Of a stretch of 64,000 nucleotides of DNA, positions 4,981 through 43,817 are shown one piece after another. This DNA is from Amphiscolops sp. MND2022 (lineage: Eukaryota). The notes beneath the pieces were generated by a model, which saw nothing but the letters and a program-made list of their open reading frames with translations, did not search any database and had not been told where the DNA came from. Position numbers and translations under genes: made by a program. Positions within the stretch are counted from its first letter, which is position 1; every line of letters starts with the position of its first letter. Location of the stretch: NCBI GenBank assembly GCA_964187785.1, contig OZ076417.1, forward strand, positions 36,828,001 to 36,892,000. Direction: 5' to 3'.

Positions 4981-4989
4981 GCATTGCAC

Positions 4990-16635: not shown

Positions 16636-16669
16636 AGTACAAAGGCTAAACGTCTCAAAGTATGGACCA

Positions 16670-18170: not shown

Positions 18171-18177
18171 GTGGCCT

Positions 18178-18360
18178 AAACCACCTGCACTCTTCAACAA
18201 TTTCTTTTAGAGAGACTCCTCGGTATGCACAAATCATTCAATGCAGAAGGAATTGTCAGAAGATTATCTAAACCTCCACTGCACTCTTCATCAATTTCTT
18301 TTAGAGAGACTCCTCGGTATTCACAAATCATTCAATGCAGAAGGAATTGTCAGAAGACAA
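18178..18360 (+). repeat. Tandem duplication, about 94-bp unit x2
   Basis: CTGCACTCTTCA...GAATTGTCAGAAGA is repeated at 18185 and 18279. Confidence 0.85.
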
Positions 18361-21300
18361 ATAACACTTTACTCCGCTTTTAACCATGGTTTTACGGAAT
18401 CATAATCAGAACAATGTCACAAACAGATGACTCAGATTCTGATAATGATCCAGATTTCTCACAACTCCTAAACCCACTCAAAGGGCACTGAACATGAATC
18501 TGACTTTGAAAACCCACGACCAAAATTCAAACACAAAAATCACATGCAACGCTCTCCTCTACTTTTTACATCAATCTCTCTCAAAAGTATTTCTCTGGCA
18601 TATCCACCTTTAACTACACCACATTCAACTGGAAACATTTTAATTCGTCATCCGGTTTATAATGTCTCTAATAATTTTTCTCCCAGTCGCTCACAATTAC
18701 TGAAATTAAAATCACCTCCGTACCTACATAACTCCATTGCCAATGAGATGACGCACTAATTTTCCCGTTCACAATTTATGGCAATCAATTAAATTACATT
18801 CCGCTGCTCCACCAACACTTACAGATGTTTTTTATATCATTAACATATGTCAACGCCAAATTGAATCATTTTCTCGAAAGTCCAGCGAAAACTTACTCTT
18901 TATGTCAATTTCCGTCTGGAAAAGTTTACCAATTATTCTCCTGTTGTTACCTTCGTTGCAAATATTACTCTTCACCATGCCTTTCATCACTTCTTCTGAA
19001 TCCCCATCACCTTGCAAGACATACACATTGCATACACAACTATTGAGTACCCCATGCACTTCTGATGCTGCATCGATAACATCACCACCCTTCTTTGCAG
19101 ATCCCGAGTTTCCACCTGTTTCTAGTTTTGCCACTCGTCCTCACAATTGCGAATCTTTCAAGTAGATCTTCCACTTTTAACACCCGTTTGACAAAATTCA
19201 TCTTCCACTGCTTCCTCAAGATGCCGAAGCCACCAATTCTCAACACTAAAATTGCTCTGCAGTCCGCAAACTCACTGCACAACTTCAATCTGAAAAGCGA
19301 CGACATCCAAAACGCTAGCAACTTCCCCCGATGAAGGTGGTTCTGTCACTCAAAGAATAGTTCACTCCGTTATCTACGAACATAAACTCAACAACTACAA
19401 TGAAGCGGTAAAAACATGCAAAATATTTACATTCTCTTAGCAAATATCTTCAATAGAAGTGACCACCGGCATTCCGATTCCCCTCATCGCTCGGTACTGT
19501 AAACATTTAAAGATGTAGACGTTCCTGCTAACATTTTTGGACATAACTCTCATTTTACTCATAACCCTTATCCAATGTCACTTAAAGTATGCCATTCTTC
19601 CCAGCCACAAAATGAGTCAAATAATTACACCCAATCTCAAAATTATCAATTTGCACAAAGTCCTAATCCAACTGCTGATCGTGTTAAACCTCTTTATCCC
19701 CTTTTACTTTTCCTCCATCCCAGTCTCCGGCTTCTATGCCCTGCTTAAAATCCTTTTAATTTTAGACCCCCCAATGTGTAATGCTTTTAACTCTCTAAAA
19801 TCTCTCTGAACAACTCTTTAGAAAATATCGAGAAATTCTAACTCCTTTGAACTAAGATGTCAATTATTTCTAACTCTTATGCGCATTCTTTCCACACATC
19901 CTGAGCACATTTTCTCATAAGTGTTCTCTGTACAATACTTACCGCAAAAACTTCGAAAAGCCAAAAAGTTATTTGGTGCTCTTGCTCTATCATGTACATT
20001 TTCACTCTGAAGTCATATAAAACTCCAATCATTCAGGCTGCTGTAAAAATGTTACTGAAATCTTGATTTTTGCTATATGCTTTTACATTCAAATTATTCA
20101 AAACCTTTTTCCTTATACACTTGTATCAGTCAATGGAGATATTATCAAGAGAAATGAAACTAAGTGGGTCACAAGAGCTAAATTCAATAATCAGTGTGAT
20201 TCATGGTCAAACAAATAAAACTATTTTAACTCTGCAATGAATGAGAGGGTTATCCCATATATTCAAAAGATTGCTATTAATTTGCCTTTGAGAGAAGAAC
20301 AAATTAAGACCGAAATGTTTACTTGCGTTGATGAGAATAATCGGAAAAGACTCCAAAAAAGTCAAAAAAGTTAGTATATAGTCCTAATGATTGAGGAAAC
20401 CATAATATTTCACTTAGTGGAAAGGCACCAAAATTATATTTTCAACATAAGCGGAAGGTAAACCCCGACAAATCTTTCTCCGACGGAAGCAAAATCTGCG
20501 GGAAAGATAACTCCAGAAGTTTCCGAAAAAATGCGACAATTGGGACTATTTTTATGATATGTCAGTGAAATCGTAGTGCCGTTAAATCAATTTTAGGGCA
20601 CCGAAGTTTCATTTGCTCAACTCAAAATATCAGACCACCAACAAGAGTACTCTTTCGACTGAACTGAAACAATACCAAAAATGTCGAATACCAGAAAAAG
20701 GATTCATTGCGATCGCAGTGGCTCCTGCAAAAAAAAAAACAAATCGGTAAACGTCGGATGCAAAAGTGCCGAAATCACCCGAAGAAAAACCCTTTGGTTT
20801 TGTGATTTCATAGGTCGTGTAAAATTATAAAAATCCAAAGTGTGTCAAAAAGAAAAAAAAGATTTATTCAATAATTCTTCAAATAAATCACAAATAAACA
20901 TCGAAAAAATCTAACAAATCCTAATTGACTACATTCGAAAGTGAAATCTTGTCAAACTAAAACCGGATTAAACCAGATCGTTTGTTTTACAGGAAAACTA
21001 ATTTGAAAAGATGTAGAAAACAGTGAAAGTTAGACACTGATTGATTTTTCATTTGAACGTCACGTCCAGTCAAACCGTCGAGACTTGTACCTGAATAAAG
21101 TGTAAAATACTCATTTTCCGTCTCCGTGTTTGAAGTGGAAGCCAGTCAAACTGCGTAAATGTAGATAGTTTAAAGTAGTCACTCACTCCAAACCACACAG
21201 GGCAACAAGCACAACATGTAACGTGTAATAATTCGCTCATGCGTTTTAAACCTATGCGTTAAAATATTAAACCGTTTTTATTGTCTGTTAATTCACCTAC

Positions 21301-21747: not shown

Positions 21748-22289
21748 TGTACTGCTTAAGAGTTGTATTGGTTAAGGTTAGGGTTAGGTTAGATGTTACT
21801 ATAAGAAGCTACTTTCATCCTAAGCAGAAGCCGCTGTAGATGTTATAAGAAATCTCTTTCAATACTAGATGCTTAGGTAAGTCTTCGAGGAAAACCTTTC
21901 TGTTTCTTTCACTAGTTATATACTGAGAGAAAACCTATCTATTGAGAGATATAGTAAACTCTGAGTAGTTATTTTTCAGGACATACATCAATAACTTATC
22001 TGTCATCAAAAACTGTCTAAATGAAGAAGCATCGCTACATCGATTATAGATTAGTGGGCTAGTATCTCAACGATGGAGCATTCACTAAATAGATTAGAGA
22101 TTCGTGGGTTACCATATCAAATTACTGAGAGTATTTATTAAACAGTTTAGTGGTAATAGTATCTGGATGGTAAGAGCATTCACTAAATAGATTAAGTTAA
22201 CTTCAAGTTGTCATGTGTCAATTTGTCAAAGAGAAAAAGTTCTAGAAAGTTCTATAAGAAAGTTTTGAGTCATGTATGATGGTATCACA
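21748..22289 (-). repeat. 3' LTR of the env-carrying gypsy
   Basis: Matches 47662-48204 at roughly 92-94% by eye; reads TGTGATACC...AAGCAGTACA on the minus strand. Confidence 0.9.
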
Positions 22290-22731
22290 ATCAACCGGGT
22301 TCTTCAAAAAAGTTTCAAGCATAATATTTGTAGGAGTGAATTTTTGTTCTAGAATGTTTTGTATCTTGTTGTTTTTCAGGTGTTATGTAAAGTGTGTTGT
22401 ATGTGTGAGGAGTGTTTTATACTTACGGAGTGAGAGTTTTCTGAAGCGGTTTGGTTAACTTCTTATAGTGCGGTTCATTTCACTTTGGTGCGAATTTTGA
22501 AAGTCAAAAAGTCAAGTAAGCAGGTTTGACTGACAGTTCGGTTCTAGTTATTGTTTGACAACAGGTTTCATGTATTTGGATTCGAATTTATTCAAGTATC
22601 CATTCATCGGCCTCTTGTAAAATATATCAAAGTAGTCAGTGAAAGTCGTGTGAAGTGAACAACTGCTGAAATCTGAAAACTTTTTATGTATTATGGAAGA
22701 CGTTGCCTATGAGTTGTGAACCAACATTGGC

Positions 22732-25700
22732 GGGTAGTGAACGAAAGTGAAAGAAGTCATTTTGCTCAAAAAGAATTCAGAAGATGTTGAGAAATGTTTC
22801 AAACTTCGAAATGTATCATATTGTTCTAGAAGTAAGAATCTTGTTTTGTAGAAAAAAAGATAGGGAGGAATGTATTGATAGAGATTTGTAATATAAAGTA
22901 TCATGCATAATTTAGCACTAAAACTAATTTCTGAAATATTTAGATTAATAGACTATAGCTTAAGAATATAGTGAAATATGATGAATACACGATTATGAGA
23001 CTACATCTAAAGTATATTAAGGTTATAGAAGATGAATAAAAAAGGTCTATATCTAATGGTTGATTATAAGGTTAGTTTGAAACAGTTTGAAGTTTGAATG
23101 TCAAAGAGTTCATGTTGAGAGAACTGCAAAGAAGTTGAAAGAGCTCAGGAAGGTCAGCGACGAAAATGAAGCTGCGGAGAAAACCAGCAAGAAGATGAAG
23201 GGAACTGCGAAGAAAGTCTGCGAAGTTGAAAGAACTGCGAAGAAAGTCTGCGAGGATGAATGACGACTACAAAAAGCCAGGTAGGAAGTTTTGAGTATGG
23301 GTGGCAGGGTTGGGTTGTGTAGGGTAATTTGACGGATCGTAAGGAGCCAGTCCCTGGGAAGAATCCAAAATCCTTGAGGACCTCGTTAAAATCGTCGACA
23401 ACTTCTTGCACAGCGTGTAAGAATTAGAAATTATTCTGATCAAATGACGTATGGGTTGAAAGAAAGACGTTGTTAGATTTTGTTTCACAGATAGCAATGT
23501 TGGGTCCCGGAAGGTGGAGTCGATAACACTGTTCAAATGAGATCTTTTTTGACGAAAGTAAGAAGATATTATACATTATCTTGAACAAAGCACGGAGGGT
23601 TGAAGGTGCAATTGTACTGTTGTTCAATTCATTGCCAACTTTTAATGCAAGTGTTTTAAAGATAGCAGCTTTCAAAGAATGTGCATTGTATGAAGGAACA
23701 GTGTTGTTTGATTGAGAAGAAGCTGATTTCATGATTGTTTCAGAAGTCATTGCCGCTCTGGAGGAGAAGGAAACGAAACAATTGAAGGAAATGACTGATG
23801 GGGCTGGACTGAAAGGTTGAGGACTAAAGAAGGTCCTGGAGAAGAGATGACTGAAGGAGGTTGGTTGGACAACTGAGAGGGAGGATGCGACGAGAAAAGA
23901 AGAAGGGAAGTGGCATGAATAGAAGTTTATAAAACAACAAAAATGTTTAAAAGTGAACCAAATATGGAGCTAATTTTGTATCAAAATTTTGGTGCTTTAT
24001 CATGTTATAATATCAGCGAAAGTTTTGGTTTGATATTGAAGTTAAAAGTTGTATCATACTTCAAGATATCTGAGGGTGAAAGATTTGAAAAACTGGCAAA
24101 ATTAAAGGGCCAGTGGTCAACAAGTTTTATATCAGAAAAATTGTATCAAACAAAGTCAAAATTCAAGGTCCCACTAATTGGAGAAGCGTATGAATAGGAG
24201 TTAGAAACGTTTCAAAAAGGTTACAAAAAGGTCAAAGATTTTACTTGTATTAGGTTTGGAGTGTACCATAAAAAGAAAGTGAGATTTACCTGAGAGGCGT
24301 TATATAGGATTAGAAAAAACAATATTCAAATTTTCAAGTGTTGTTCGTATTGCTTTCGATGATTGAGTAATTCGTTGTGAGTCAATGTCTAAAAATTGTA
24401 ACATTTTGAGAGGGTGGTCAAAGCATTCAAGATTGTGTGTGAGTGTTGTAAGTGGAGAATCCGTAGAATTCTTTTTGTACGGGTCGAGTTTGTAAGTGAC
24501 ATCACGAAGCGTTCGTGATGTAAGAACATTGTTGAGTTTGTCAGTAGTAGTTGTTGGTTGTTTTGGAGTGTATTGTTCAGGAGTAGTGTATTGTGTCACA
24601 GATTTAGCTTTTTCTGCCTTAACCATGAAGGCGATGACTTTTGCAGAGATGAACAATAGTTCGTTATATGAGTATGATTGTTCCGATAACGCTGTATAAT
24701 AAGATTTCTCTTCGTCGGTGAGAGGTGTAGAAACAAGATGTTTAATGACAGTGAGGGGTTTTGCTATGATAGTAGGAGCGTTACATGGCAAGAGAAAGTC
24801 GTCAAAGTGTATCAGATATTCTTGAGGAACAATGATAGGTCTTGATGTATCGTTATACGGCAAGAGACAAAAGTATTGTTTTATAGGATCATAGTTCCGT
24901 AAATAACCCGTTATACGAGAGTGGTCAATGGTGTACAAGTGTTTCATAGTTTATTTGTGTGGTGATGTATATTTGTAAATTACGAAAATGTAATTTTTTG
25001 GTTTTTGATGTTTGAGAAATGTAGTGTATGTGTTATGATGAGTTTTTTTTGCGAAGATGAAAGAAAGGAAGGGTCATCTTCATCAGTTTTGAGGTCGTAT
25101 ATTGACGATCTGAGAAAGTTGAACTGAAATGAGAAAATTTTAACATTATTGTCAAGCCAAAAATGATATGGTGTCAATTTTTTCGAGGCAAAAGAAGTGA
25201 AGAAGTCTTGGTTTTTGTCATATAATTTGAAAGTGTAGTCAGTTGGGTGCTTATATAGAGAAGTGAGTTGAGATTTGAATGTGAAAGTTTCGGTCGATTA
25301 AAAAGGTATGAGATAATCATCTATTTGTGTTGAAAATGAATCTTTTGGAGAGATGACTGGTGGATATACAGAAGAAGTGAGAAAGATAGGATCTTTCATT
25401 ATATCATATTTCTTTTTCGATGATTGAGTTGTTGATATAGATTCTTCAGGATGTTTTTCATCAGTATCAGAAGGTTTAGAAGTGATGTAACTAGCGTCCA
25501 TTTGTCCTGGTTGATTATTTGTAGGTTCAATAGGACTTTGAAACAAAATCGGTGAAGTGTTGCACAAAGGTGTGGTTGATGGGTTTGAGATGTTTGAAAT
25601 GTTTTGTGAATCCAGTTGTGATGGAAGATCAATATGAGCTTGAGTCATTTTGAAATCTACTAGCGAGTAGCTTTATTTTGTTTTGAAGGAGCGGTTTGAG

Positions 25701-28700
25701 GCTGAGATAAAATACGAACTTTGATTGTGGGTTGATTTGAACGTACTATAGAGAGTTCGATTGAGGAATCATTTTTGTTAGAGTTTACGAAGTGATATTT
25801 GATAGAAAGAAATGAAGAAAGGTGTTTTGTAGATATTTATTTTTCAACTGGAGAAAGGCGTTCTGTAGATATTTCTTTTTCAAGTCAGAGTGGTAGTCAA
25901 CTGGTGGGTAGTGAACGAAAGTGAAAGAAGTCATTTTGCTCAAAAAGAATTCAGAAGATGTTGAGAAATGTTTCAAACTTCGAAATCTATCATATTAATC
26001 AAGAAGTAAGAATCTTGTTTTGTAGAAAAAAAGATAGGGAGGAATGTATTGATAGAGATTTGTAATATAAAGTATCATGCATAATTTAGCACTAAAACTA
26101 ATTTCTGAAATATTTAGATTAATAGACTATAGCTTAAGAATATAGTGAAATATGATGAATACACGATTATGAGACTACATCTAAAGTATATTAAGGATAT
26201 AGATGATGATTAAAAAAGGTCTATATCTAATGGTTGATTATAAGGTTAGTTTGAAACAGTTTGAAGTTTGAATGTCAAAGAGTTCATGTTGAGAGAACTG
26301 CAAAGAAGTTGAAAGAGCTCAGGAAGGTCAGCGACGAAAATGAAGCTGCGGAGAAAACCAGCAAGAAGTTGAAAGAACTGCGAAGAAAGTCTGCGAGGAT
26401 GAATGACGACTACAAAAAGCCAGGTAGGAAGTTTTGAGTATGGGTGGCAGGGTTGGGTTATGTAGGGTAATTTGACGGATCGTAAAGAACCAGTCCCTGG
26501 GAAGAATCCAAAATCCTTGAGGACCTCGTTAAAAGCGTCGACAACTTCTTGCACAGCGTGTAAGAATTAGAAATTATTCTGATCAAATGACGTATGGGTT
26601 GAAACAAAGACGTTGTTAGATTTTTTTCCACAGATAGCAATGTTGGGTCCCGGAAGGTGGAGTCGATAACACTGTTCAAATGGGATCTTTTTTGACGAAA
26701 GTAAGAAGACATTATACATTATCTTGAACAAAGCACGGAGGGTTGAAGGTGCAATTGTACCGTTGTTCAATTCATTGCCAACTTTTAATGCAAGTGTTTT
26801 AAAGACAGCAGCTTTCAAAGAATGTGCATTGTATGAAGGAACAGTGTTGTTTGTTTGAGAAGAAGCTGATTTCATGACTGTTTCAGAAGTCATTGCTGCC
26901 CTGGAGGAGGAAGAAACGAAACAATTGAAGGAAATGACTGATGGGGCTGGACTGAAATGTCGAGGACTAAAGAAGGTCCTGGAGAAGAGATGACTGAAGG
27001 AGGTTGGTTGGACAACTGAGAGGGAGGATGCGACGAGAAAAGAAGAAGGGAAATGGCATGAATAGAAGTTTACAAAACAACGAAAATGTTTAAAAGTGAA
27101 CCAAATGTGGAGCTAATTTTGTATCAAAATTTTGGTGCTTTCTCATGTTATAATATCAGCGAAAGTTTTGGTTTGATATTGAAGTTAAAATTTGTATCAT
27201 ACTTCAAGATATCTGAGGGTGAAAGATTTGAAAAACTGGCAAAATTAAACGGCCAGTGGTCAACAAGTTTTATATCAGAAAAATTGTATCAAACAAAGTC
27301 AAAATTCAAGGTCCCACTAATTGGAGAAGCGTATGAATAGGAGTTAGAAACGTTTCAAAAAGGTTACAAAAAGGTCAAAGATTTTACCTGTATTAGGTTT
27401 GGAGTGTACCATAAAAAGAAAGTGAGATTTACCTGAGAGGCGTTATATAGGATTAGAAAAAACAATATTCAAATTTTCAAGTGTTGTTCGTATTGCTTTT
27501 GATGATTGAGTAATTCGTTGTGAGTCAATGTCTAAAAATTGTAACATTTTGAAAGGGTGGTCAAAGCATTCAAGATTGTGTGTGAGTGTTGTAAGTGGAG
27601 AATCCGTAGAATTCTTTTTGTACGGGTCGAGTTTGTAAGTGACATCACGAAGAGTTCGTGATGTAAGAACATTGTTGAGTTTGTCAGTAGTAGTTGTTGG
27701 TTGTTTTGGAGTGTATTGTTCAGGAGTAGTGTATTGTGTCACAGATTTAGCTTTTTCTGCATTAACCATGAAGGCCATGACTTTTGCAGAGATGAACAAT
27801 AGTTCGTTATATGGATATGATTGTTCCGATAACGCTGTATAATAAGATTTCTCTTCGTCGGTGAGAGGTGTAGAAACAAGATGTTTAATGACAGTGAGGG
27901 GTTTTGCTATGATAGTAGGAACGTTACATGGCAAGAGGAAGTCGTCAAAGTGTATCAGATATTCTTGAGGAACAATGATAGGTCTTGATGTATCGTTATA
28001 CGGCAAGAGACAAAAGTATTGTTTTACAGGATCATAGTTCCGTAAATAACCCGTTATACGAGAGTGGTCAATGGTGTACAAGTGTGTCATAGTTTATTTG
28101 TGTGGTGATGTATATTTGTAATTTACGAAAATGTAATTTTTTGGTTTTTGATGTTTGAGAAATGTAGTGTATGTATTATGATGAGTTTTTTTGCGAAGAT
28201 GAAAAAAAGGAAGGGTCATCTTCATCAGTTTTGAGGTCGTATATTGACGGTGTGAGAAAGTTGAACTGAAATGAGAAACTTTTAACATTATTGTCAAGCC
28301 AAAAATGATATGGTGTCAATTTTTTCGAGGCAAAAGAAGTGAAGAAGTCTTGGTTTTTGTCAAATATTTTGAAAGTGTAGTCAGTTGGGTGCTTATTTAG
28401 AGAAGTGAGTTGAGATTTGAATGTGAAAGTTTCGGTCGATTGAAAAGGTATGAGATAATCATCTATTTGTGTTGAAAATGAATCTTTTGGAGAGATGACT
28501 GGTGGATAAACAGAAGAAGTGAGAAAGATAGGATCTTTCATTATATCATATTTCTTTTTCGATGATGGAGTTGTTGATATAGATTCTTCAGGATGTTTTT
28601 CATCAGTATCAGAAGGTTTAGAAGTGATGTAACTAGCGTCCATTTGTCCTGGTTGATTATTTGTAGGTTCAATAGGACTTTGAAACATAATCGGTGAAGT

Positions 28701-29048
28701 GTTGCACAAAGGTGTGGTTGATGGGTTTGAGATGTTTGAAATGTTTTGTGAATCCAGTTGTGATGGAAGATCAATATGAGCTTGAGTCATTTTGAAATCT
28801 ACTAACGAGTAGCTTTATCTTGTTTTGAAGGAGCGGTTTGAGGCTGAGATAAAATACGAACTTTGATTGTGGGTTGATTTGAACGTACTATAGAGATTTC
28901 GATCGAGGAACCATTTTTGTTAGAGTTTACGAAGTGATATTTGATAGAAAGAAGTGAAGAAAGGTGTTTTGTAGATATTTATTTTTCAACTGGAGAAAGA
29001 CGTTCTGTAGATATTTATTTTTCAAGTCAGAGTGGTAGTCAACTGGTG
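22732..29048. repeat. Internal tandem duplication, ~3.15 kb x2 (22732-25906 and 25906-29048)
   Basis: ORF pairs are offset by 3143 bp (23424/26567, 23943/27086, 24300/27443) with near-identical translations; junction at CTGGTG|GGTAGTG. Confidence 0.95.
27443..28090 (-). CDS. Accessory ORF of unknown function downstream of env (215 aa; duplicate at 24300-24947)
   Basis: Open in both duplicated copies, ATG start, non-repetitive composition (HLYTIDHSRITGYLRNYDP.KQYFCLLPY). No family recognised. Confidence 0.45.
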   Translation of the reverse strand: MTHLYTIDHSRITGYLRNYDPVKQYFCLLPYNDTSRPIIVPQEYLIHFDDFLLPCNVPTIIAKPLTVIKHLVSTPLTDEEKSYYTALSEQSYPYNELLFISAKVMAFMVNAEKAKSVTQYTTPEQYTPKQPTTTTDKLNNVLTSRTLRDVTYKLDPYKKNSTDSPLTTLTHNLECFDHPFKMLQFLDIDSQRITQSSKAIRTTLENLNIVFSNPI

Positions 29049-29539: not shown

Positions 29540-31627
29540 TAAAAAAACCAAGTGCAAAATAAACTGAAAATGGTTATAATTTGTTCCAGATTATATTTGA
29601 TAGAAATTGTTCTGCAAACTTTGATAAGGAGTGTTAGAAGTGTTTGTATAAAAAGGTATGTAGAGAAATATATTCCACATTTTGTAAGAATGTAGCATGG
29701 ATAACCAAATAGAGTTATGAATGCATCAGCAAACCATGATGGTGTAAAAAGAGGAGTAAGATTTAAGAGTTTGTCATGTAGTCCAATACGACGTGTTTTT
29801 ATTTGGATTTGTTTGAGAAATGTGTGCATCAGAGTAGTCTGGAGTATTGGAAGAAATGAATGAATAACTAAGAGCTTTTCCAAGTAATTGAAGTGTTGTA
29901 TCAGAATGTTTTGAAAAAAGAATTCTGTTCCAAAATTGATTTAGTTCTGCATTCGAGTATATCCCAGCGTCTTGAGCTGTAAATGCTTTTGGGCGTATTG
30001 TAGTTTTGATTTGATTATGTGTAAACATAAGAGGAGGTTTGCGTTTTATAGGTTCTGGGCGGAGCTATAGAAATCTTGGTCATCAATATCAGGGTCAAGT
30101 TCTATAATGTTTCGTGGATTTTTATCACAAGGTATAGGAGTAACATAGTCATATGTTTGTCTTGTAATGGGATCTACGTACATGAAAGTATCTTTGTAAT
30201 GTATAGGAATTATTCCAAAGCAACAATCAGCCTTGTATAAAGGGGATAAAAAATGGGGACAGTCATATAGCCAAGCTGTAGAGCCTTCTACATATAAGAA
30301 ATTACTTCGATTACCAGTTAAGAGGAATCCTGCAGGTTGAGGGTTTTGTACAGACATAGCAAGTATTGTAAGGAGTTGATTACGTTCTAATTCTTAGATA
30401 GTATGAACTATATTTATTTCTCGTACAGTCATAGTGCGAAAGACTTGGTTATTAGTATAATCTATTTTAGTATTAATATGAGCATCATAGTCAATGATTG
30501 TAACGTTGTTAAATACATTTAATGCTGGAAAAACATAGTGTTTTGTTTTAGAGTCTAATACTATTTTACCAGAAATATGTTCGTTTATTATAGGTTGAGG
30601 ATTAGGTTGTCCTGTATGCATGTTGAAACCTTCTTGAGAAGTAACAAAAAGATCTGAATATTGTGTTGTATAAAGAGGTTCAGGTTTGCCACAAAATGCT
30701 TGAGTGTGTGGAAAGAGTTCAAAACATGAGAGGCTTCGGTTAAGTGGGTTTTGTGTATGGGGTGCACGAAAGTACGGAAAAGAAGTGCCTTTTATTCTAG
30801 AAGAAGTATCAGCCTTATTTAGTAATGAAGAGTGAACGAAGGACTCTGTTTCCATCCAATATCTATCATCTATTTCAGTCATTCTTCCAACAAAGTCTTG
30901 TAGTGTGAAGATTAAACAAAAATCGTCACTAAACCAGACAAATGTAAAGGAGTTTCAGTAGTGGGTTTACAAAAACCATCGGCAAAGTAACATGGAAGAG
31001 CGTGAGCATCTATTGCCATTAGGTTTTTGTATCATCATATGTAAGTTCTACTTCTGAGACGGAGAGTCTCCAACTAAGTAGATTCACTTCAAACTGATGA
31101 TGTGCTGGACAATTGTGAAAAGGGTTGTTTTTTGGGTCATAAATCCAAGTTTTATCTGCTGGCATGAATGTGAATGTACCAGTATACATTGTATTAAAGT
31201 TATAAACTGTAAAAAGAGTTTAATATTGTTCAAGTTTTTCTTGGAAAAAATGATCTTCTAAGAGTGTAAAAGTACGGTTATAATTAAAGTTGTTTAATAT
31301 TTTATTATTTGTACCATTAAGGTGTCTAATAACGTTTTTACATTCTAATAGATCAAGAGTGATCGGAAAAGGTAATGTATTGTGGTTCCATACGGTTCGA
31401 TCAATACGTCTATATTTAGTTGAGCCTTGAAAACAGATCTTCCTTTCTTTCTTAGCATAAGCTTCACGTTTGAAAATTTTAACGTGTTTAGCTTTAGCTC
31501 GAACAAAAACTCGGGTTGGAACTTTAGCATGTTGAATGTTTGAAGGGGCTTCAGTACATGGTTTTACATTTAATGAATTGAATTGTCCCAATTTTTGTTG
31601 TTTTTCACAATCATAGTGAGAAACCAT
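29540..31627 (-). pseudogene. env: env: chuvirus-glycoprotein/herpes-gB-like (class III) fusion protein, fragmented
   Basis: Lies between IN and the 3' LTR. Motifs VSHYDCE...SLNVKPC, LERNQLLTILAMSVQNPQPAGFLL, EGSTAWLYDC, YVDPITRQ...IPC, AGIYSNAELNQFWNRILF, then a hydrophobic C-terminal segment. Confidence 0.65.
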
Positions 31628-33409
31628 AAGATTTGTAATATTTGGATCATCTGGAGAAAGATAATTATCTGTATCTGTAAGTTCAATAGGTATTGTATCA
31701 GAAAAAAATGTTACAAAGAAGGGTGTAAAATATTATTTGTGAACATATGTGTTTTAGAATGATGTAGTGTATTTGAGGCCTGAATAAGGGTTGTAAAACA
31801 TGATTTTGCCATAAGTTAAATCTGGGAGTGTAGGATCTCTATTGAAATCTACGTATGTGACAATGAAAGGAGCAGGTGTAGTTTGATGTTCTAGTTTTGC
31901 TACTTGAAACACTGGGTGAGGATTTAATCCTTGAAATCTAATATTTACTTCAAACTTCAATTCTAGGTTTGGATCTTGGAGTCTTTTAAGTTCAAGTTCT
32001 TTACGTTTTCCAGAAAGTGTATCGTTAATATGTATAAAACGTTCTGCAAGAAGTGTAAAACGAGGATCAAATCTAGGTTCCTACATAGTGATTGCGTCAA
32101 CACGTAATGGATAGTTAGCAAAAGTAGGAGTAGCTGGTCTAGAGTTATCAGCAGTGAATTATTCTGGAAGGCGTACTGTAGGTTGTACAGGAGTAGGTAC
32201 TAAAACTTCGGAGAACAGGTTACCAGATAAACATTCAGTTTGTTCGTCAGATGATATTAAAGATGCAGTGTCAATACCAGATGTAAAATAGGAATGTGGA
32301 GCAAGTTCAGAAGAGTGTGTTTCAGAAGATTGTGGTTTAGCGTGTTGTCTTAAAAGTCGAGAAGCTGAACTACTAGATAGTGCAGAAAAATTGAGAGTTT
32401 ATGTATCAGTACTGAGTCTTCGATTAGGTAGAGGATGAAGATTATATCGATGTTGAGGTATATATATTGTACTATTTGAGTCTTGTGAGGGTTTAAATCC
32501 TTGTGTTGAATCGTCGTCTAATAAATTTGGTAGTAATGTAGAAAGTTTTTTTAAGTGATTTGAGAGTAGGATGTCTTTATGATTTTGTACTTGATTCAAG
32601 ATCTGTAATATCAGTTGTTTTTGGTATTTGTACTATATCTAGTTAAGGTGGAAGTAGTCTAGCTGTTTTGATAGCTTTTCCAAATTTTTGTGGTTTATAA
32701 TCTTTGTCATTTTTAACAGAATCTAGATTTGGTATATGAACCAGAGGAGTCTGGAGGGGTGATGAATGGGAGTGAGATGGTGGAGTTAAAGGTATTTCAC
32801 GTATAGGAGGTCGGTTTGTACCAAAAGATGTACTAGAACTTTTGGTTGAAGATGTATCAAAACTGTTAGAAATTGGTCTTGTAAGTTGTGTAGTTACATT
32901 ACGCGGATGAGTTGTTAGAACTGTTTGAGAAGTGGAAATAGTTATACTTGGTGCAGACGGAGATGTATCGGAAGACGAATCCAGGTTGTCACAATTTTTA
33001 TATCTACTGTTTTTCCGCTTTTTGATTTCTATTGAGGGTTTTATTCTTCAGAGCTGCGCCTGATGAGGTGTTACTCTTTTAGAGTTTCTAAAAGTTATGA
33101 GTGATTAGTGGTTCAAAATTTTGGAGGGTGAATGGAAAAGTTTTAATCCTTTCGTGGTTGTTGTCCTAATTTATAATGAGATTTAAGATGTCTATTTTGA
33201 GATGTATCATTGGATGAAGGAGGAGAAGAGCTGTCAGTAGGGTGACGAATACGTGTATGAGATGGATTAGTGTCAGGAGTTTCGTTAATTGTATTATATG
33301 ATGAAGTGTCATATAAAGGATTATCAGGATTATAGGGATGAGTGGCATTATAGGATTCATCATCGGATGATGAAGTGTCAGAAAGAAATGAAGATGAATC
33401 AATATTTGC

Positions 33410-36400
33410 TCATTTAATAGGTTTAGGAATGTCTGTAGTAATGGAGTCTGAAAATCTCATAAAATTGTGAAGATGTGAGTATACGAGAGATTCTTTTCGA
33501 TAAAAATGTATCGAATGGTTTCGATGAATGTGAAATGTACCATCTTGTGATAAAAGTTCATACGTTACGTCTGAAAGTCGATCCAATATTTTGTAAGGAC
33601 CAATACGGAGAGGTTTAAGTTTGTCTGAAAAGTGAACATGAGTGAAATTACGTTTCAAAACGAAGGTACCAAGTGGAAGAGGTTTACCTTCATGATAAAT
33701 TTTTGTTATGTATGCTTGCGAATTGAGTTTTTTCAGAGTATAGTTACGTACGATTGAATAAATTCGTAACATTGCAGTTTCAACTGCAAGGAACCATTGT
33801 GGAATAGGTTTCGAGAGTGTTTTGTAAAAAAAATGGGTTTAGGTCAGTTTTGTCAAAGTGAGAATGTTCTGTTAGTTGGGAGCGATATTGTGTTATACAT
33901 GTGTTATTTTTGTTACGATCAATATTCAAGTCGAATGTTAGAGGAATTCGAGATCTTATATGACTTCATGAGGTGAATCATTGAGTGTTAAAAGGGGTTG
34001 TGAGTTGTGTGCAAAAGCGTACATATGAATTTGATGCGCCCAATCCTTGGGAGTGTTTTGTAAAAACATACGAATATGTGTACCAAGGTTTTTGATCTGA
34101 ACTTCAACGAGTCTTTTAGTCCAAGGGGAGTGAGATGTCATAGGAGAGTGTCTGATACCCATAAGTGTACAAAGATGTGCCATATCATTGTTGATATTTT
34201 CTGATCCACGATCAGTAACAAGGTATTTAGGTGGACCAAATTTGACAATCTAGTGATGTAAAAGGGTTTTAACTGCTTTTTTTTGCATTGTTAGATTTAA
34301 TAGGTACTGTAACGACAAAGTGACTAAAAGCATCAACAATGACGTGTATATTGGATTTGTTCTTTGAAGAAGGAGTAATAGAACCTTTGGTAACCTTTGA
34401 TATACGATAGTTGAAAGAAGGAGCATGTTCTGAAAAAGATTGTAAAGGAGCAGTATTAATTTTCATATTAAAGTGTTTATTGCGTTGACAATCAAGACGT
34501 TGACAATGTATGAAAATGGATAACCATTTTTCAAGGAGTGGAAAATAATAGTATTGTGAAAATGTATTGTAAGTAATTTTAGTGCCAGAATGACAATGAG
34601 CGTGAAGTTTTTTGAAAGCTGTTTTAAAACGTCTAAAAGGAAGGCAAATCCTGACATTACCAGAAACTAAGTGTGAAGTTGTATTTGATAGTATCAGAAA
34701 AGGATTTGTTTTTTAAATATAAACTTATGAGGTTAGTGCCATCGTCAATAAAAAGTTGAGAAAAGATTTTGTAGTATGCGCGTAGAAAAGGAGAACCATG
34801 TATTAAAGGTGTAGGATATTCAGGTTCAGTATTGTGACGTACCCAGTGATTTACTGTTTTTAAAACAGGATCTTGGGTTTGTTGAAGTTGTAATGTGTGT
34901 AGGTCAAGTGAAAAGTCATCTGGTAGAAAGAAACCTTGAAAATAGTTTTTGTATTGAAAAAAGGAAGGATCATAGAAGGGTAATATTTGAGACGTATGTG
35001 TAGAAAGTTTGATAGGTTCAGTTGTATCAATGACAGAAGTTGATAAAAAAGATGTTTATGTTTTTGTGATGGTAGAAGAACTGTTTGAACGTGTGAGAGT
35101 GGGTGTTTGATATGTATCATTGGTTTGATTATTAGATGAGAATGTAACAGACTTCGGAATAATGACATCAGTATCGTTAAGGAGTAAAGATTGTTGATGT
35201 AGGGATTTGTTGTTTTTTTTTGCAAGTGCTTTAAATTTGTTTTAGGACGGAAATATAGATTTGAAAGAAAATGAGTCTAAAGGTTTGACAATAATGTCAT
35301 TGCCATTGTCATTTATACGGATAGAGAATTGATCTGTTCCATAATCAGCAAGGATAGGGTGAGAATTATGTTTTTGATGTGATAGGATTTCTTCGTGTTG
35401 TACCAAGTAATGAACAGGCGTTAAAGAGTTGTTTTGTAATATTGCAAGATCTATTTGAGATGGTAGTTGTTTGTGTTTGAGTTGATTCAATTGGGGTTCA
35501 GTTTTTATAAAAGTATGACTAAACATGTCTGCAACACACAAATTTTTACCTGGAGTGTGAATAAGTTTTAATTTGGAAGATTTTGTGAATTGCATTTGAG
35601 CACGATAAAAACGTGGACTGAGGTTTCCTTTTTTGTAAAACAATGTATTAGAGGTTTATGATTGGTGAATATGTGGATTGGATGTGGCGATCCAATTATA
35701 AGGAATTCATAAATTTGAAGAGCATGTTCTATACCAAGGAGTTCACGATCTAATGTAGAGAGTTCCTAATCTTATGGATAAAGTATTGGGGAGTTGTAAG
35801 AAACAACTTTCATTTTTTTTTTGTCATTAATTTGGAAACAGACAGTTCCTAGTCCGATCAATGAAGCATCAACTGTAATGAAGAAAGGACGTTTTGTATT
35901 AGGTATTGTAAGTTCGATATCAGAAGTAAGAGCGTTTTTTAATTTGTGAAATAGGGTTTCATGTTCAGTAGTCCAAGACCACGGAGTATTTGCATGTAGT
36001 AAGTCCTAAATACGTTTAAGATTAATGTGGAGTTTTTCATTGAATTTGGTATAAAAGTTAAGTGCACCTATAAAACTCATACGGGCAACTTTACTAGTAG
36101 GAGAGGGAATTTTATGAATTGCCTTACCTTTGGAGTGTATAGGTTTGATTGTATTATAACCAATTTCATGTCCAAGAATTTAAACTTTGAGTAACATAAA
36201 AAATGATTTTTCAGGAGCTAGTTTTGAATTATGTTTTGTACTTATAAGGTGAAGTTATTCAAAAAGTTGGAACATATGTTCTTTAGAGTTAGAATAGAAT
36301 GTCATCAATATAGACGAGGGCGAAGCCTTGTTCTATAGGATTTTTTAAAAAGGAAGACATTTGTTTTGTAAAGAAAACTGGGAGTCCCTTTAAGTCCATA

Positions 36401-37929
36401 AAAACCTCTAATGAATGCAAAAAGTTTACCAACTGAGGAAGAACTAGTAAATTTTATGGTTTCTTCATCCAAAGGAGAGTGAGCATATGCATACAATAAG
36501 TCTATACCTTTTTTTTATTTTTTATTTACACGCACTTATTGCGAAGCAAGTGATTCTATAGGCCAAGGTTCATCGGATTGTTCTGTATCAGAATTCAAGT
36601 GTCTGGCGTCTAAAACACATTAGATAGAGTCACCTTTGGGTATAATAATGAAGGGGTTTAGATAAGTTGTAAAATAGTTAGGTTTTTCTTCAAGAGAAGA
36701 GCCAATTTGTTTAATAATGTTATGTTTTTCGAAGTCTTTAAGTAAGTCATTGAGTTTTTCTCGGTAATGAATAGGTCCTTTAGAAGGACGTTGTGTAAGA
36801 AGTTGAGCATATGGTTTTAATCGTATTCTAAAAGGAGTAGCAATTTTCCCCAACATCATTTTGATGTGTAGCATAGCACTTTTTGTGTTTAACTAATAGG
36901 TTACACAATGTAACATATTTAGTATCAATAGGATCAGAAAACTGGAAGGTAAATTTCTTTATAAACATACGATTGTCTTTTGCATACGGTAACGTAGGAA
37001 AAGTGCAAGACTTTGGTGTGTCAGAAGTGGGTTGAACGTTGTATATAATGGAATGAGGTGTATCATGTAATGTAGGAGATGTCTTGTAAATTTGATGTAG
37101 AGAAAAATTTTTTGATGAAGAGGGTATATCTTGTGTAGGCGTAATGTAATTAGATAATGGAATTGGTTCAGGTATATCCGAGTGATAAGTTTAGGCTACA
37201 TTGTGTACAAGAGAGTTTATGTCATTAACTTGATAGTATTTGGGTTGATCATTTGTGATTGGTACTTCAATATAACCAATATGTCCTTTTGGGAGTGTTG
37301 CAATATGGTTTGTATAGTTTTGAATAATTGTAGAAGCAATATAAGGTTTGTCGTCAGTGAAAACTTCAGTGAAATTGAAAGTTGCACGAAATTTAGAGGA
37401 GAAATAAGTATGTGGTATTGTTGGAAAGAATTGTTTCTTGGGAGTTGTAGCAAAGTGAAGGTTGTAATAGTTCTTTAAGGGAAAGTGAGCAATTTTTGAA
37501 AAGTTTGGATTTAAACGAATTTGTGTTTTAGAATTGATACTGAAAATGTACGAGAAATATGGATAGTCTTTGGGAAGTATAGAATTTAGCGGTATTTCGT
37601 TGATCTTTGGGTTGTTCTTTGAATTGTATTGTAAAATCTTGAATATTGATGTTCTGTATGTATTCTTCAAAGAATGGTGTTCCAAGAATGTTATATTTAA
37701 TGTCTGCAACAGCAAGTGCGATAATACACTGTCTAGAGGTTTGTTCAATAGACGTATTCAAAGTATCAGTTATATGATGTAATATAGGAACTTCAGTTTG
37801 ATTTGCATCAGTCAATGTTTTTGATGTATGATTTGTTTTTTTGTTAAATGTGATATTGTGGAGTTTTTTTTCAATTGTAAGATAGGTAAGGTAGTTGAGT
37901 ACTGAAATGGAAGCACCACTGTCTAACAA
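33410..37929 (-). pseudogene. pol: Gypsy pol (PR-RT-RH-IN), with many frameshifts and stops
   Basis: PR MLDSGASISVL (37929); RT LVYIDDI (~36310); RH ...ADMFSH; IN VIVDAFSHF, VTDRGS, VEVQIKNL; C-terminal IGPYKILDRLSDVTYEL. Confidence 0.9.
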
Positions 37930-37999
37930 AAATGAGATTTCTAATCTTGAAGGATGATCATTATCATTATGTTTTTCAGGAATGTGTAAATATAGAGAA

Positions 38000-39490
38000 T
38001 AAAACCAACTAGTAGGTGTTAAAGCATTAGCCAGTTCTGTAGGATATTACATATGGATTTCAAAGTTATTAGGTGAATTTGATTGTTCTGTTTGAATGTT
38101 GTTAGTTTTATTTCTTGTTTCAGAACCTGATCTAGATTTAAAAAGCCTAGACTGTCGTGGTTGAGAAGGTGGTCTATACGAGGAAGTGTATTGTGGAAAT
38201 TGTCTATCTCGAGAGTAAGAACGTGATTTTTATCTATGGCATGAATCTTGTCTATATGGTGATGTGTATGAAGATCTGTATGGTGAACGACGGGAACGTG
38301 AATCTCGTCTATAGTTGTTATATCTTGATCTGTTAAATTGTGGAGGAGTAGTAGTTCTGTCACATCTGTATCGGTCTCTAGAGTGAGAGCGATATCGATT
38401 TTGTGATGAAATATTGCGATCTGTATTACTATGACGTGATGTACTTCTACTACGGTATCTATCATAAGATTCGGTAGGTTTGTTATTTGTTCTGTAGGAG
38501 TTATTGTCACGAGAAAAAGAACGGAAGTATTGGACAAATGATTTTTGAGGAGATTTAGATCTAGCATATGCGTCTCTTTTGTCTTCATCATCTCGTTGTT
38601 TCTTGAAACAAGCCGAGATGGAGTGATTTGTTCTATGACAATATGAACAATATGTTTCAATGCAGGTTTGTGTTTGTTGTTTTGGTCTCTGTGTTGTTGA
38701 AACATAAGGTGTTCAGATTGTTGTGTTTCTAATTTTTGTGATTGTAATTGATTTGTTATAGATTTTACTTCAAGAGTAAGATCATGAGTGCGTATTTTAT
38801 CATTTGCTACATCTTCAGCGTCTACCAGTTTTACAAGTGTATGGAATGGTACTGAAGGTTCTAGAACAGTTGAAGTGTGTCTTACTTATCTTTTGTTCGC
38901 GAAGTCTTAAAGGTTTTTAGGAAGACCTTTTGTAAAAATTTCATTACATTTTAAGTTGATAGTAGAAGCATTTTCATTAAACCAGCCTTTTTCAACTAGT
39001 TGTTGAACTCTAAAGGCAAAGTGGCGTACCGTTTCATTATCCTTTTTGACAAGGGTTAGGGCTTCAACTTGTGCATAGTAAGCATTTTTTTGAGAAGAAA
39101 ATTGTTTCCTAAAAACTTGTACAAAAGCAGACCAGTCTTGTTTGTAAGTGTCATTTAAGCGATTGTACCAGCTGAGAGCTGTACCAGTAAGAGAGCATTG
39201 TATAAAAGCCCTTCGTCTAGCGTGCCGAAATTTATATTCATGAGAGGTTGGAAGTTGTAGTCCTGAAGAAAATGTAACACGAGCTTCAATGTGTTGTAAA
39301 TATTCTTCTGGTGTATATTTATGATCAAGACTATCAAACGGTTTGATTGGTTCTGAAATAGAAGTGGAAGAGATGATATATGTAGGATTTGAAACAGTTG
39401 CGGATGGTTGAGCATAAGGATGTGTTATATGAAAGTTTGAATGTTAGGTATTTGTTTGTAGATTATTAGTGTTTGTTGGAATTTGTGATG
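38000..39490 (-). pseudogene. gag: Gypsy gag core
   Basis: Reverse translation gives ...IQCSLTGTALSWYNRLNDTYKQDWSAFVQVFRKQF...LVKKDNETVRHFAFRVQQLV..., a retrotransposon capsid-like pattern, followed by an Arg/Ser-rich region. Confidence 0.75.
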
Positions 39491-39726
39491 TAGGTGTCTT
39501 GATTTCCAAAACGTTGTTTTGTTCTGAGAAGTGAACTGATTTTTGATGAAAGTCAACAAAGAATGATACAAAAGTTTACAGTGAAGTAGTCATCAATTAT
39601 TTGGCGCCAAAGCAAAGAAGAGATGTTTCATGAGTTGTTCATACACTTATTGAAAGCAGAAATCTCGATAAAAAGTAGAAGATATACATGCTGTGACTTC
39701 TAGCTCAAGAAAATAAGTACTTGATA

Positions 39727-39738
39727 CTCCCCCTTTTC
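39727..39738 (-). promoter_or_regulatory. Copia polypurine tract
   Basis: GAAAAGGGGGAG on the minus strand directly abuts the 3' LTR start TATCAAG. Confidence 0.85.
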
Positions 39739-39763
39739 ATGAGCTGTAAATAGGAACTCATGT

Positions 39764-42700
39764 CTAACGATTAAAGTTACTATTCTCTCTCTGGGTTGTT
39801 ATACCACCAGCTATTTCCTTGCTGAACCTCTGAAACATGACCCTCCCTAAGGCTTTAGTCAAAATGTCCGCTGTCATATTTTCGGTTGGACAGAAATTAA
39901 CTTCTAAAACCTTCTCGTCTATTTTCTCTTGCAAGAAATGTAGCTTGACGGCGAAGTGCTCAACTTTTTGGGAATTGACAGCGTTTTTAGTCATTGCTAT
40001 ACAAGCCTGATTGTCAACGAAGACAGAACTCGGTAATGATTTGCACACACCAAGCTCTGCACCTAGCTCTCTCAGAAAAACCAATTCTTGTGTTGCTGCA
40101 AAAAGAGCAGCAGCTTCAGTTTCGGCAGTGGTCGTTGCTACTGTTGATTGCAGCTTTGAGTGCCAACTAGCAGCACCTGAAGTCTCGTTTAGAAAAAAAC
40201 AGTAGCCACTAGTTGATTTTCTTGAATCTATTTTACATGCCCAGTCAGCATCGCTATAGCCTATAATTCTCATTTGGTCAGCTTTTTCGTAAATCAACTT
40301 TCTATTCTTCGTAGCCTTCAAATATCGCAAAACGTGCTTAGCTTGATTCCAATGCAGCCGTCCAGGATTTTGAACAAACCTACTCAGAGATCTTACGACA
40401 AAAGTTATGTCTGGCCTTGAAGTGTTGGCTAAGTAGTTGAGACTACCAATTAAACCTCTGTAGTTACAACACTTCATTACTTTTTCTTCTTTACTGCCCT
40501 TTGAAGGACAATCAACACTGCTGATAGGGACTTTTTCTAAAGCTGGTGTAAAAGCGGTTTTCGCGTCGGTCATGCCAAAGTTCTCTAGAAGTTTTTCTAT
40601 GTAACTTTCTTGTGAGATTTCAATTTTGTTAGCATCTCTTTTGATTTGCATACCTAGAAACCAATTCAGATCACTAACGTCGCTTACCAAAAACTTTTTG
40701 CGAAGCGCTACTTCGAATTCCTCGTAAAACTTTTCATCTCTGCTACAGTAAACCAGATCGTCAACTCAACACGCAACATAATCAGTGACACCCTTACGAT
40801 GTCTCAAAAAGAGGCAAGGATCACTTTTGCTCCCCTTGAATCCAATGCTTGTCAAAAAACCTCTTAGGGTAAAGAACCAATTTCGACCCGATTGTTTTAG
40901 CCCGTACAACGATTTTTTCAATTTGCAAACCAAATTCTCGCCGTCTTTCAACACTTCGAAGCCTAACGGTTGTTGAACAAAGATTTCTTCGTCTAACTCT
41001 GCGTTGAGATAAGCTGTCTTCACATCTAATTGCTTCAACTTCATGTCTCGTTGTACCGCAAAACTCAGTAAAAATCCAAGAGTCACCATTTTCACTGTGG
41101 GACTATAAGTTTCTTCGAAATCTACGCCCTGTTTTTGATTGAAGCCTCGGGCGACATATCATGCCTTGTATTTTATAATTTTGCCGTTTCCATCTCGTTT
41201 TAAGGTGAAATGCCATTTTCCGCTAACTAAATTTTTGTTCTTAGGAAGTTTGGTTAACTCCCAAACTTTGTTTTTCTCAAGTGACTGAAACTCGTCCTTC
41301 ATAGTTCCATACCATTCTGGAATGGATAACGCTTCTTCAACGGTTTTCGGTACTTCGGGGTCGACGAAACTTGTGTGAAACGACAGTTGATTTTCGAGTT
41401 CAGACGAAAAATTTTGATTAGCTGTCTCACTAGTACCTGGTTCGTATCTCTCAGGTGGTCTCACGTGCCTTCCGTATCTGGTTCTAACCTCATTTTCTGC
41501 TGATTCTGTCAACACATTTCCAACTTTTCTGTTCTCAGCTATCTCACGCCCCCTTTCGTCTATCTCGAAAATAATGTCTTCGTCGTTCGTAAGACTGCGC
41601 CTATGAAAACTTTCCGATCCTGGAAAAACTCTCTCGTTAAACGTTACATTTAGGGTTTGCAATGTCTCCAAAATTCCATTCTCAAAACTACCAATCAGAA
41701 AAGTTTTTGAATTGCTACTATAACCTAGCAAAATACCTGCTTCTGCTCGACTGTCGAACGTTTTTCGTTTCTCTTTCTCTACGAAAGCAACTGCTTTGCA
41801 GCCGAAAACCTTCAGATGGTTTAGATCTGGCGGTTTTCCAGAGAACTTCTCGAATGGTGTCTTACCATGTGAGGAGTGAACGCACCTGTTTTTTATGTGG
41901 AAGGCTGCCCTAATTGCAAAAGACCAAAACGTTTCTACTAAGTTCGCAGTTTTTAACATACATCTCACCATCGCGCCGTTGGTACTCCATACTCTTTCAA
42001 CTTTCCCATTTTCTTCGGGAGTGTTCGTAGCGGTAAACTCTTGACGAATATGGTTTCTCAAACAAACATCTGCAAACTTACCAAACTTGAATTCTTTCGC
42101 GTTATCGCTCACGATTCTACGTGGCTTCCCTAACTCAGCGAGAAAAAGTTCTAGTTTCGGTGCAACTTCGTCTTTACTTTTCAGCAAATAGACAGCACCT
42201 AACCGACTAAAACTATCAACAAAGGCCAAAGCGTATTTGAATCCGTCGACTGATTCAATTGGCTCGGGCGAAATGTCAACATGAACTATTTCTAGAGGTT
42301 TCGATGCTCGTGTTCTACAGTTTTACATATAGGACTACGTCTCGCTTTTTGAGTGTTACAGACATCACACTCGTCGTCTCTGTCCAGAAATTTCAAACTA
42401 TCAGTCTGTTTTGATAGTTTACGAATGTCTATATTATTGTTATGGCCTAAACGTTCATGCCATAACTGCAGTGTATCTTCAGCAGTGTTGCTTATTTCGA
42501 TTTTTGTAGCGCGCAAAAAGAACAGATTGTTCCGACTTTCTAAAGAAAAACAATCGTTTTCAATCTCAATCCTGGGTTTCTCATGAAATCTTACTTTCGC
42601 CTCCGCGACGTTCAGTCTTTTGATTGAGATTAGGTTTTTTGAATACTGGGGGATATGCAGAGCATTTTCGAGAGCTACTTTTTGTAATATTCCGCGACTG

Positions 42701-43817
42701 TTTTTGGCGAAAAACTCTATTTTACCTCTACCTTCAACGACAGACTCAGTGCCGTTAGCACAAGATACTTTTTCTTTCTGGGACGTTTCTAGATAACTGA
42801 ATAGTTCTATGTCTTTTATCATGTGACTTGTGCAGCCTTTGTCTATCAAAAGTTCGAATTGAGAGCCGTCTTCTCGTTGATCGGACGCGTGAAAAGAAAA
42901 TCCGTCCGTATCGTTGAGTTCAGTTGTCAAGTTGCCTTCGTTCCGTTTCGTAAGAAACCTCTTTTGTGTTTCCTTATTACGCTTATCAAATGGCTTCTTT
43001 TGAGCTTTGGGACACGCATTAGCCTTGTGACCTTTCTCACCACATTCGTAACAAACGATCGCAACAGTTTTCGACCGACATTGCGCTTGCTTATGACCGA
43101 ACTTGCCGCATTTGAAACACTTCACATCTTTACTGAAATGTGAACTAGAACCTTGATCCGTACCTTTCAGGTTGCTCTTGCTATCAAAGTTGAGTAAATC
43201 TCTCTTTAAATCTAAATCTAGGAAAGACTTTAGCTCGTGCGAAAACTTGAAAACAGTGACAAAGTTCGCGAACTGTTGTGGAAGGCCTTTCAAAACTACC
43301 GAACAAAGCATTTGGTCACTTACGGTTTCGTTCACTTCGCTCAAATTCAGCTGAAGTTCCTCAGCTCTGACTAAGTAGTCACGAATACTTTCAATTGAAT
43401 CGAGTTTCAAGTTTGTCAACTTGTTCAAACGTTGGTGAATGCGCGGTCTTTCTTTGCTCTTAAAATAATTTTGGAGTTCACGCCAAGCTGCAGTGCCATT
43501 CGGTGTTAGGCACTTTATAAGACTTAACGTCTTCTTATCTAAACATTGAACCAATTCGCACATACTTCGAACTGCTTTTCTTTCAGTTTTTCACTCTCAG
43601 CGGCAAAGTTTTCGGCTTCTGTTGCCGGCAAAGTTTCCATATCCAACAACACACTTCTTAGCTTGAGCAAATGAAGCCGAGCTTCAAATCGTTCCGCGAA
43701 ATATTCAAAATCTTCATCCTTACCAGAAAACATTAAAGTTTCGAGTTTAGAATGCACTGTCCTGGTCGAAGTGGCCATCTTAGCGGTAGTTTTCTCAACG
43801 TAACGTGAATTTTTCAA
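39764..43817 (-). pseudogene. Copia gag-pol polyprotein, broken into five ORF pieces
   Basis: Knuckles CFKCGKFGHKQAQC and CYECGEKGHKANAC; PR LLIDKGCTSHM; WHERLGH..CDVC; IN FVDSFSR / IVSDNAKEF / ENGKVER; RT QLDVKTAYLN, YGLKQSGR; RH GYSDADWA..RKSTSGY, NMTADILTK. Confidence 0.92.

Follow-up and report, generated by a model that had tools for sequence, protein, structure and literature searches.

Dezordi et al. reportedly described, in 2020, a BEL/Pao retrotransposon, Anakin, that carries a chuvirus glycoprotein. Like the element presented here, Anakin is an LTR retrotransposon that amplifies a chuvirus-like glycoprotein (as cited in PMC13524379 and PMC10084718), whereas in the present case the backbone is Ty3/gypsy, the host is not an insect and the envelope protein (Env) is very distant from the sampled chuvirus glycoproteins (G). 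Envelope genes of the gB type have been described on gypsy elements in many animal phyla (Chary & Hayashi, eLife 2026, PMC13524379), together with arthropod gypsy elements bearing a chuvirus-like glycoprotein; another study reports no clear gypsy capture in arthropods (PMC10084718). Since gB-type env on gypsy elements is published as widespread, the fusogen class found here is not new. The HSV/gB-type errantiviruses (PMC13524379) resemble the present element in having, downstream of a gypsy gag-pol, a class III env with a signal peptide, cysteine bridges and a transmembrane helix, in a furin site that is not constant, and in their multicopy occurrence in non-insect animals. The combination that distinguishes them, an intact gag, pol and gB-type env within LTRs in multiple copies, is found in sister copies of the element, the copy in the window (the whole stretch of 64,000 nucleotides that was analysed) being decayed.

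Several traits set the present family apart from these relatives. The parts of PMC13524379 that were available mention neither a length of 18-19 kb, nor a single 2,734-aa gag-pol frame, nor three accessory ORFs, and acoels are named neither in its main text nor in its seven supplementary files in the form available. Its prefilter demanded a POL-ENV distance of <=1 kb outside insects, and the gap is at least 1.3 kb here owing to ORF-X, which suggests that surveys using a short pol-env gap filter can miss elements with an extra ORF at this place. The Tor elements of Oikopleura (PMC4402516) are likewise marine-invertebrate gypsy elements with env, a pol-env gap and, in some groups, an env RNA from an internal promoter; their Env has a predicted furin cleavage, no ORF-X-like gene is described in the available parts of that paper, and Tor4b groups with F-type elements (PMC13524379). 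The CG...CG ends and 3-bp target duplication of Troyka elements (PMC12440569) are not found here. A search of the literature on acoel env elements, on accessory ORFs combined with a class III env and on non-AUG bicistronic env, with most subscription journals and Repbase outside its range, found no description of the family. The likely acoel host, the high-copy 18-19 kb family, the accessory ORFs and the proposed CUG design of ORF-X are unreported in the literature searched, which is not proof of novelty.

We regard it as very probable that the window holds a broken env within one old 18-kb Ty3/gypsy copy, and that intact kin of this copy encode a predicted class III fusogen, likely for entry into adjacent cells, probably of the germline, in what is likely an acoel host.

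The element in the window

The element is bounded by two LTRs (Table 1), with a 4-bp target duplication that is identical on both flanks. The Ty1/copia-type element nested in it is fairly intact, with the order gag, protease, integrase, RT read from its ORFs. The possibility that a 3.1-kb tandem repeat 3' of env is the 3' LTR was dismissed, because the true LTRs have TG...CA ends, a primer-binding site (PBS) and the target duplication; the repeat contains ORF-Y and ORF-Z.

Table 1. Features of the gypsy element, in its 5' to 3' order (positions are those of the window)
Feature	Position	Strand	Remarks
5' LTR, TG...CA	47662-48204	minus	93% identical to 3' LTR, K2P 0.064
Primer-binding site, adjoining 5' LTR	47650-47659	minus	
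N-terminal extension of gag-pol ORF, decayed	44943-46443	minus	tblastn 55-57% to natural young copy
Nested Ty1/copia-type element interrupting gag, foreign to gypsy	39497-44848	minus	230-nt direct repeats, 98%
gag, protease, RT, RNase H, integrase, in pieces	33116-39443	minus	
ORF-X, putative accessory ORF between pol and env, AUG-poor	31754-32984	minus	CTG in Kozak-like context at 32984-32982
env, predicted class III (gB/chuvirus-type) fusogen gene, broken copy	about 31812-29080	minus	Pfam, natural-copy comparison, model of open copy
ORF-Y, putative accessory ORF 3' of env, first copy, broken	27443-28790	minus	
Open frame with ORF-Z homology, first copy	26567-27112	minus	46% aa over 116 codons to young copy
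Tandem duplicate of ORF-Y/ORF-Z block	22728-25906	minus	Partner 25902-29048, 96.9%
3' LTR, purine-rich tract before it	21748-22289	minus	

A sequence-only reading of this DNA had placed a cysteine-patterned ectodomain and a hydrophobic segment at 29540-31627, between integrase (IN) and the 3' LTR. Both are present there, on the minus strand, and the location was right, but the gene is longer, starting from the ATG at 31812, within the end of ORF-X, and ending near 29083, according to the comparison with natural copies. The order was also correct, but the neighbours are not direct: ORF-X (1.2 kb) precedes env, and about 7 kb containing ORF-Y, ORF-Z and the tandem duplication follows it. The motifs quoted in that reading can be recognized in a looser form than given: HYDC...SLNVKPC near 31.6 kb, LERNQLLTIL at 30390-30361, GIYSNAE at 29965-29945, and VDPITR...IPC at 30177-30127 with a gap of 8 residues, not 4.

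The window copy of env carries some six frameshifts and no fewer than three in-frame stops. Two of its six scanned pieces match the Pfam family PF24664 (Monjiviricetes_fusion) in collinear order, with E 2.4e-6 (profile 339-429) and E 0.0078 (profile 445-522), both under the curated cutoff, and the other four gave no PF24664 match. Twelve of the 14 cysteines conserved in the family are still readable in the pieces, as is a PPxY motif at 29319-29308. The 40 nearest scored env copies of the window subfamily are 84-91% identical, which places the window copy in an older, decayed branch.

Other remnants and genes are found in the same window. A second, more decayed env remnant at 16642-18684 (plus strand) gives a weak PF24664 match and is nearer to family 2 (60-66% aa identity in pieces, 69-72% nt) than to family 1, both described below. 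The region 3568-12063 contains remnants of another LTR-type element, with gag- and integrase-like frames and a higher GC content, between 94% identical repeats near 2725 and 12966; it lies inside a host gene, the paralogue of which is at 52.4-53.9 kb. Finally, an intronless 356-aa frame at 59009-60079 (minus strand) gives the impression, from its ORF, of a seven-transmembrane receptor.

Predicted Env fold and its partnership with pol

A natural open env from the same genome encodes 901 aa from its Met, with hydropathy peaks near residues 27-45 (signal segment) and 715-735 (transmembrane), and matches PF24664 with 83.8 bits (E 9.4e-24), above the cutoff of 27. Searching 1.84 billion representatives with env gave 2101 matches at E<=0.001, and each of the 14 ectodomain cysteines is retained in 16-18 of 18 distant full-length relatives. 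The furin site R-x-K/R-R was found neither in the natural open env nor in any of 22 relatives, and sequence and profile searches of env against the PDB returned nothing at E<=10. The cytoplasmic tail carries a PPxY motif in both families and in the window copy (P0004, P0005, P0028). Such motifs may bring in Nedd4-type ligases, and that of Env could recruit them for sorting or budding.

The structure was predicted with AF2 from a 67-row alignment, for the natural open copy and not for the broken gene of the window. The model has a mean pLDDT of 74.2 and a pTM of 0.54, with pLDDT <50 at 141 of 701 residues; a single-sequence AF2 prediction of env P0005 (pLDDT 32.5) was discarded. The model from the alignment agrees with a gB/G-like fold, as defined by an elongated beta fusion domain, a PH-like domain, a long central helix and a beta crown; its central helix has 45 residues (400-444), and the likely first fusion loop falls in the low-confidence stretch 89-100. 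The PDB matches listed by Foldseek are herpes gB throughout (best E 8.8e-14), and its top BFVD matches are the G of xinmo-, chu- and qin-related viruses (E 1e-26 to 1e-23, TM 0.35-0.43; 11-15% identity). Herpes gB appears in the BFVD list from E 1e-14. VIA-align superposed the model on varicella gB with Z 11.9 and rmsd 14.9 over 444 aligned residues. A search independent of Foldseek, covering 48,161 chains, gave nine at Z>=5, all of them gB or rhabdovirus G, the best with Z 9.0 and rmsd 14.0 over 432 aligned residues. Whole-chain TM-scores are low (0.25-0.43) and rmsd values high (13-18 Å or more), and the class assignment therefore rests on the agreement of the searches; the ranking of chuvirus over gB as the closer match rests on Foldseek and Pfam. 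Paramyxo-, pneumo- and baculovirus F and GP64 are absent among the structural matches listed, which is not by itself an exclusion of those folds.

Taken together with the Monjiviricetes glycoproteins (PF24664; xinmo-, chu- and qin-related) and herpes gB, Env shares the predicted fold and the domain III-IV profile, and it differs from them in its 10-15% identity, in being encoded by a retroelement and in its long S/T/P-rich tail with PPxY. The assignment of Env in this family as a predicted class III fusogen is thus supported. The sequence-only reading had proposed such a protein, chuvirus G/gB-like, on a Ty3/gypsy backbone, and Pfam, Foldseek, VIA-align, the domain order and the RT neighbours all favour it; the AlphaFold and Foldseek comparison that it had suggested, carried out on the natural open env, returned class III proteins at the top of the matches listed.

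Regarding the backbone, the Pfam domains and the RT neighbours are of gypsy type, and not of the BEL/Pao type that characterizes Anakin. The order gag, RT, RNase H, IN, with a C-terminal SH3, is that of gypsy elements. Likewise, the order protease-RT-RNase H-IN with gag upstream, and the TG...CA LTRs, PBS and 4-bp duplication (in the window and in seven of the eight family 1 copies), are those of Ty3/gypsy elements (Metaviridae), which have target duplications of 4-6 bp. The best PDB match of the RT is the Ty3 RT (4OL8, E 8e-24), followed, among non-Ty3 entries, by 8r0s (E 3e-22), which we take to be caulimoviral.

A metagenome scan yielded seven loci from 14 pattern matches, with env relatives at 26-29% identity. 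One of them, L042, the sole contig long enough, is a gag-pol-IN-env gypsy element with two post-env ORFs; compared with family 1, its pol is 35-36% and its env 27% identical. The remaining loci examined either have no pol or are too short. A recent capture of env from a chuvirus-like RNA virus of the host lineage, comparable to mosquito Anakin, would agree with the Monjiviricetes glycoproteins standing at the top of both the Pfam and the BFVD matches. We consider it highly improbable, however, in view of the low identity to these glycoproteins, of the distant relative in L042 that is already part of a gag-pol-env gypsy element, and of two viral-contig scans in which no env relative was found. 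Since Env is only 11-15% identical to viral G, yet env and pol co-occur in L042 at 27% and 35-36%, an old env-pol partnership would fit better than a recent capture.

The post-env ORFs L042:9651-12092, L043:2541-3137 and L044:2318-4060 have in common a small conserved domain with a coiled coil after it, and those of the metagenome elements match no Pfam family above cutoff; accessory genes 3' of env seem to be common in the clade. A link of ORF-Y or ORF-X to these ORFs was considered and is unsupported (hhalign probability 0.6 and 0.1). In L046:1-6081 a related env is flanked by three ORFs, with no RT within 6 kb; it may represent either a fragment of a virus or a different type of element.

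Copies, selection and host

A first look with a 115-aa env piece as query gave 6282 candidates in the 1.07-Gb genome, and 81 of the 150 scored env candidates have an open frame of 900 aa or longer. The full-length copies of family 1 (n=8) span 18.0-18.1 kb. LTR identity of 99.8-100% and an open env are common to all eight, seven have the 4-bp target duplication, six have the single 2,734-aa gag-pol frame and three have all five ORFs open, fractions that are biased upward because the copies were picked as best matches. A nested, partial copy among the first three was omitted from the counts, and four extra stretches without an LTR pair were used only for the dN/dS and start-codon checks. Family 2 (n=3 copies) is 18.7-18.8 kb long, with LTRs 99.7-100% identical in all three copies and ending in TG...TA, and shows the same X-env-Y order; compared with family 1, its env is 50-53%, its ORF-X 35% and its ORF-Y 36-43% identical. 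The search for intact copies that the sequence-only reading had called for thus found both open env genes and full-length copies, and, to judge from the assembled copies, the family is high-copy, 18-19 kb long and recently mobile. Ahead of the capsid domain, the gag-pol frame has an N-terminal extension of some 600 aa (Table 1; L015:4711-6270), the first 250 aa of which are 39-41% identical between the families and have no Pfam match.

Selection was assessed by pairing one young copy with single open stretches from other copies and computing Nei-Gojobori dN/dS for each pair. Env gave 0.05-0.20, ORF-X 0.08-0.24, ORF-Y 0.07-0.29, ORF-Z 0.09-0.40 (with saturation in one pair) and gag-pol 0.06-0.27, and env and the accessory ORFs are therefore constrained about as strongly as pol. 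Such purifying selection marks Env as useful to the element and is not proof of its mediating infection. We envisage that Env trimers on budding particles would fuse membranes without furin cleavage, and that the particles would enter neighbouring cells, likely of the germline; the element may once have been infectious, as the sequence-only reading had proposed. Selection and open frames do not tell the possible roles of Env apart, and the transmission mechanism of most such elements is described as unknown in PMC13524379, so a class III protein kept for intracellular budding, for anchoring particles to membranes or for interference against related elements has to be weighed. This appears quite unlikely, as a complete five-domain-like ectodomain and all 14 cysteines are kept down to about 27% identity, beyond what an anchor needs.

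The host was assessed with a motif taken from the spliced leader (SL) described for an acoel (PMC9911081). Allowing 2 mismatches at most, this motif occurs 2,466 times in the genome, versus 0 for the reversed control, and the host is thus likely an acoel, in agreement with the non-insect host that had been proposed. The spliced-leader places (about 2,500 genome-wide, including L038-L041) are dispersed and far exceed a single SL RNA cluster; they are possibly SL-carrying mobile elements or retroposed mRNAs.

ORF-X and the expression of env

Three conserved ORFs (X, Y and Z), accessory by their position and constraint and without Pfam match, flank env. For ORF-X and ORF-Y no Pfam family was found (0 of 23 members; 1 of 24 members at E 0.009), and neither has a PDB match. 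ORF-X has 418-477 codons and no in-frame Met in copies of both families. Counting all frames, 3, 1 and 0 ATGs were observed versus 11.4, 9.6 and 9.5 expected from base shuffling, and ATG is not depleted in the other ORFs of the element. With codon shuffling, the off-frame deficit is weak in family 1 (3 versus 6.6, P 0.07) and strong in family 2 (P<=0.002), where the other two frames contain 0 and 1 ATG versus about 6.5-7. Of the three family 1 ATGs, one serves as the start of env and the remaining two begin upstream frames of 1 and 2 codons.

Near the 5' end of ORF-X both families have A-x-x-CTG-GAT in common, within flanks that are unrelated, and CTG accounts for 0-3% of the Leu codons of these ORFs. 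In the window subfamily the CTG is present in 22 of 30 copies and the A at -3 in 30 of 30, and the motif is found in 28 of 30 loci of further lineages; the subfamily copies are not independent, and the support for CTG therefore amounts to about five lineages. An ATG at the CTG position (two of the 30 copies) was not counted as support, since it may be random decay. An ORF-X without Met, poor in AUG and keeping A-x-x-CTG-GAT in five lineages suggests that it starts at CUG and that leaky scanning reaches env. A subgenomic RNA would carry ORF-X and env; a minority of ribosomes would initiate ORF-X at the CUG, and the remaining ones would continue scanning across the AUG-poor ORF-X until they reach the AUG of env. 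The accessory proteins ORF-Y and ORF-Z would each be expressed from a separate RNA. For the putative subgenomic RNA, neither a promoter nor a splice site was identified. This arrangement is comparable to that of rice tungro bacilliform virus (PMC5902531), in which an upstream ORF with a non-AUG start, free of internal AUGs for about 900 nt, allows ribosomes to get to the genes downstream (ORFs I, II and III). That virus is a plant pararetrovirus in which initiation at AUU after a shunt has been demonstrated, whereas here a CUG with env downstream is proposed for an animal LTR element from its sequence.

The main rival to CUG initiation is splicing: ORF-X might be a second exon that receives its AUG from upstream by splicing or trans-splicing, and CTG-GAT a conserved DNA or RNA signal. 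Spliced env RNAs and internal env promoters are known from the Tor elements of Oikopleura (PMC4402516), and trans-splicing occurs in acoels (PMC9911081). Splicing would leave the AUG deficit in the other two frames of family 2 unexplained, however; the two families share no AG acceptor upstream of the CTG, and the conserved bases are exactly the purine at -3, the CTG and the G at +4. We therefore judge it unlikely, and initiation at the CUG remains the preferred reading. A broader proposal, that acoels host expanding 18-19 kb endogenous metaviruses with a class III fusogen, three accessory proteins of no known family, a bicistronic env expressed by CUG initiation and leaky scanning, and infectious spread from the soma to germline or stem cells, is advanced tentatively, as a possibility on which we remain rather doubtful.

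Xenacoelomorpha are a key early-branching bilaterian group. With the present family they would join the hosts of gB-type env retrotransposons, which bears on the proposed Pre-Cambrian origin of the envelope. LTR elements make up about half of an acoel genome (PMC9911081); a family that carries env and has thousands of candidate loci may be one of the main drivers of this content. The expression of env, if it proceeds as suggested, would be a pararetrovirus-like strategy of which the literature searched, within the range given above, holds no report for an animal LTR element. The conserved CUG start followed by an AUG-free coding leader of 1.2 kb would then provide a model for how an element balances Env against an accessory protein.
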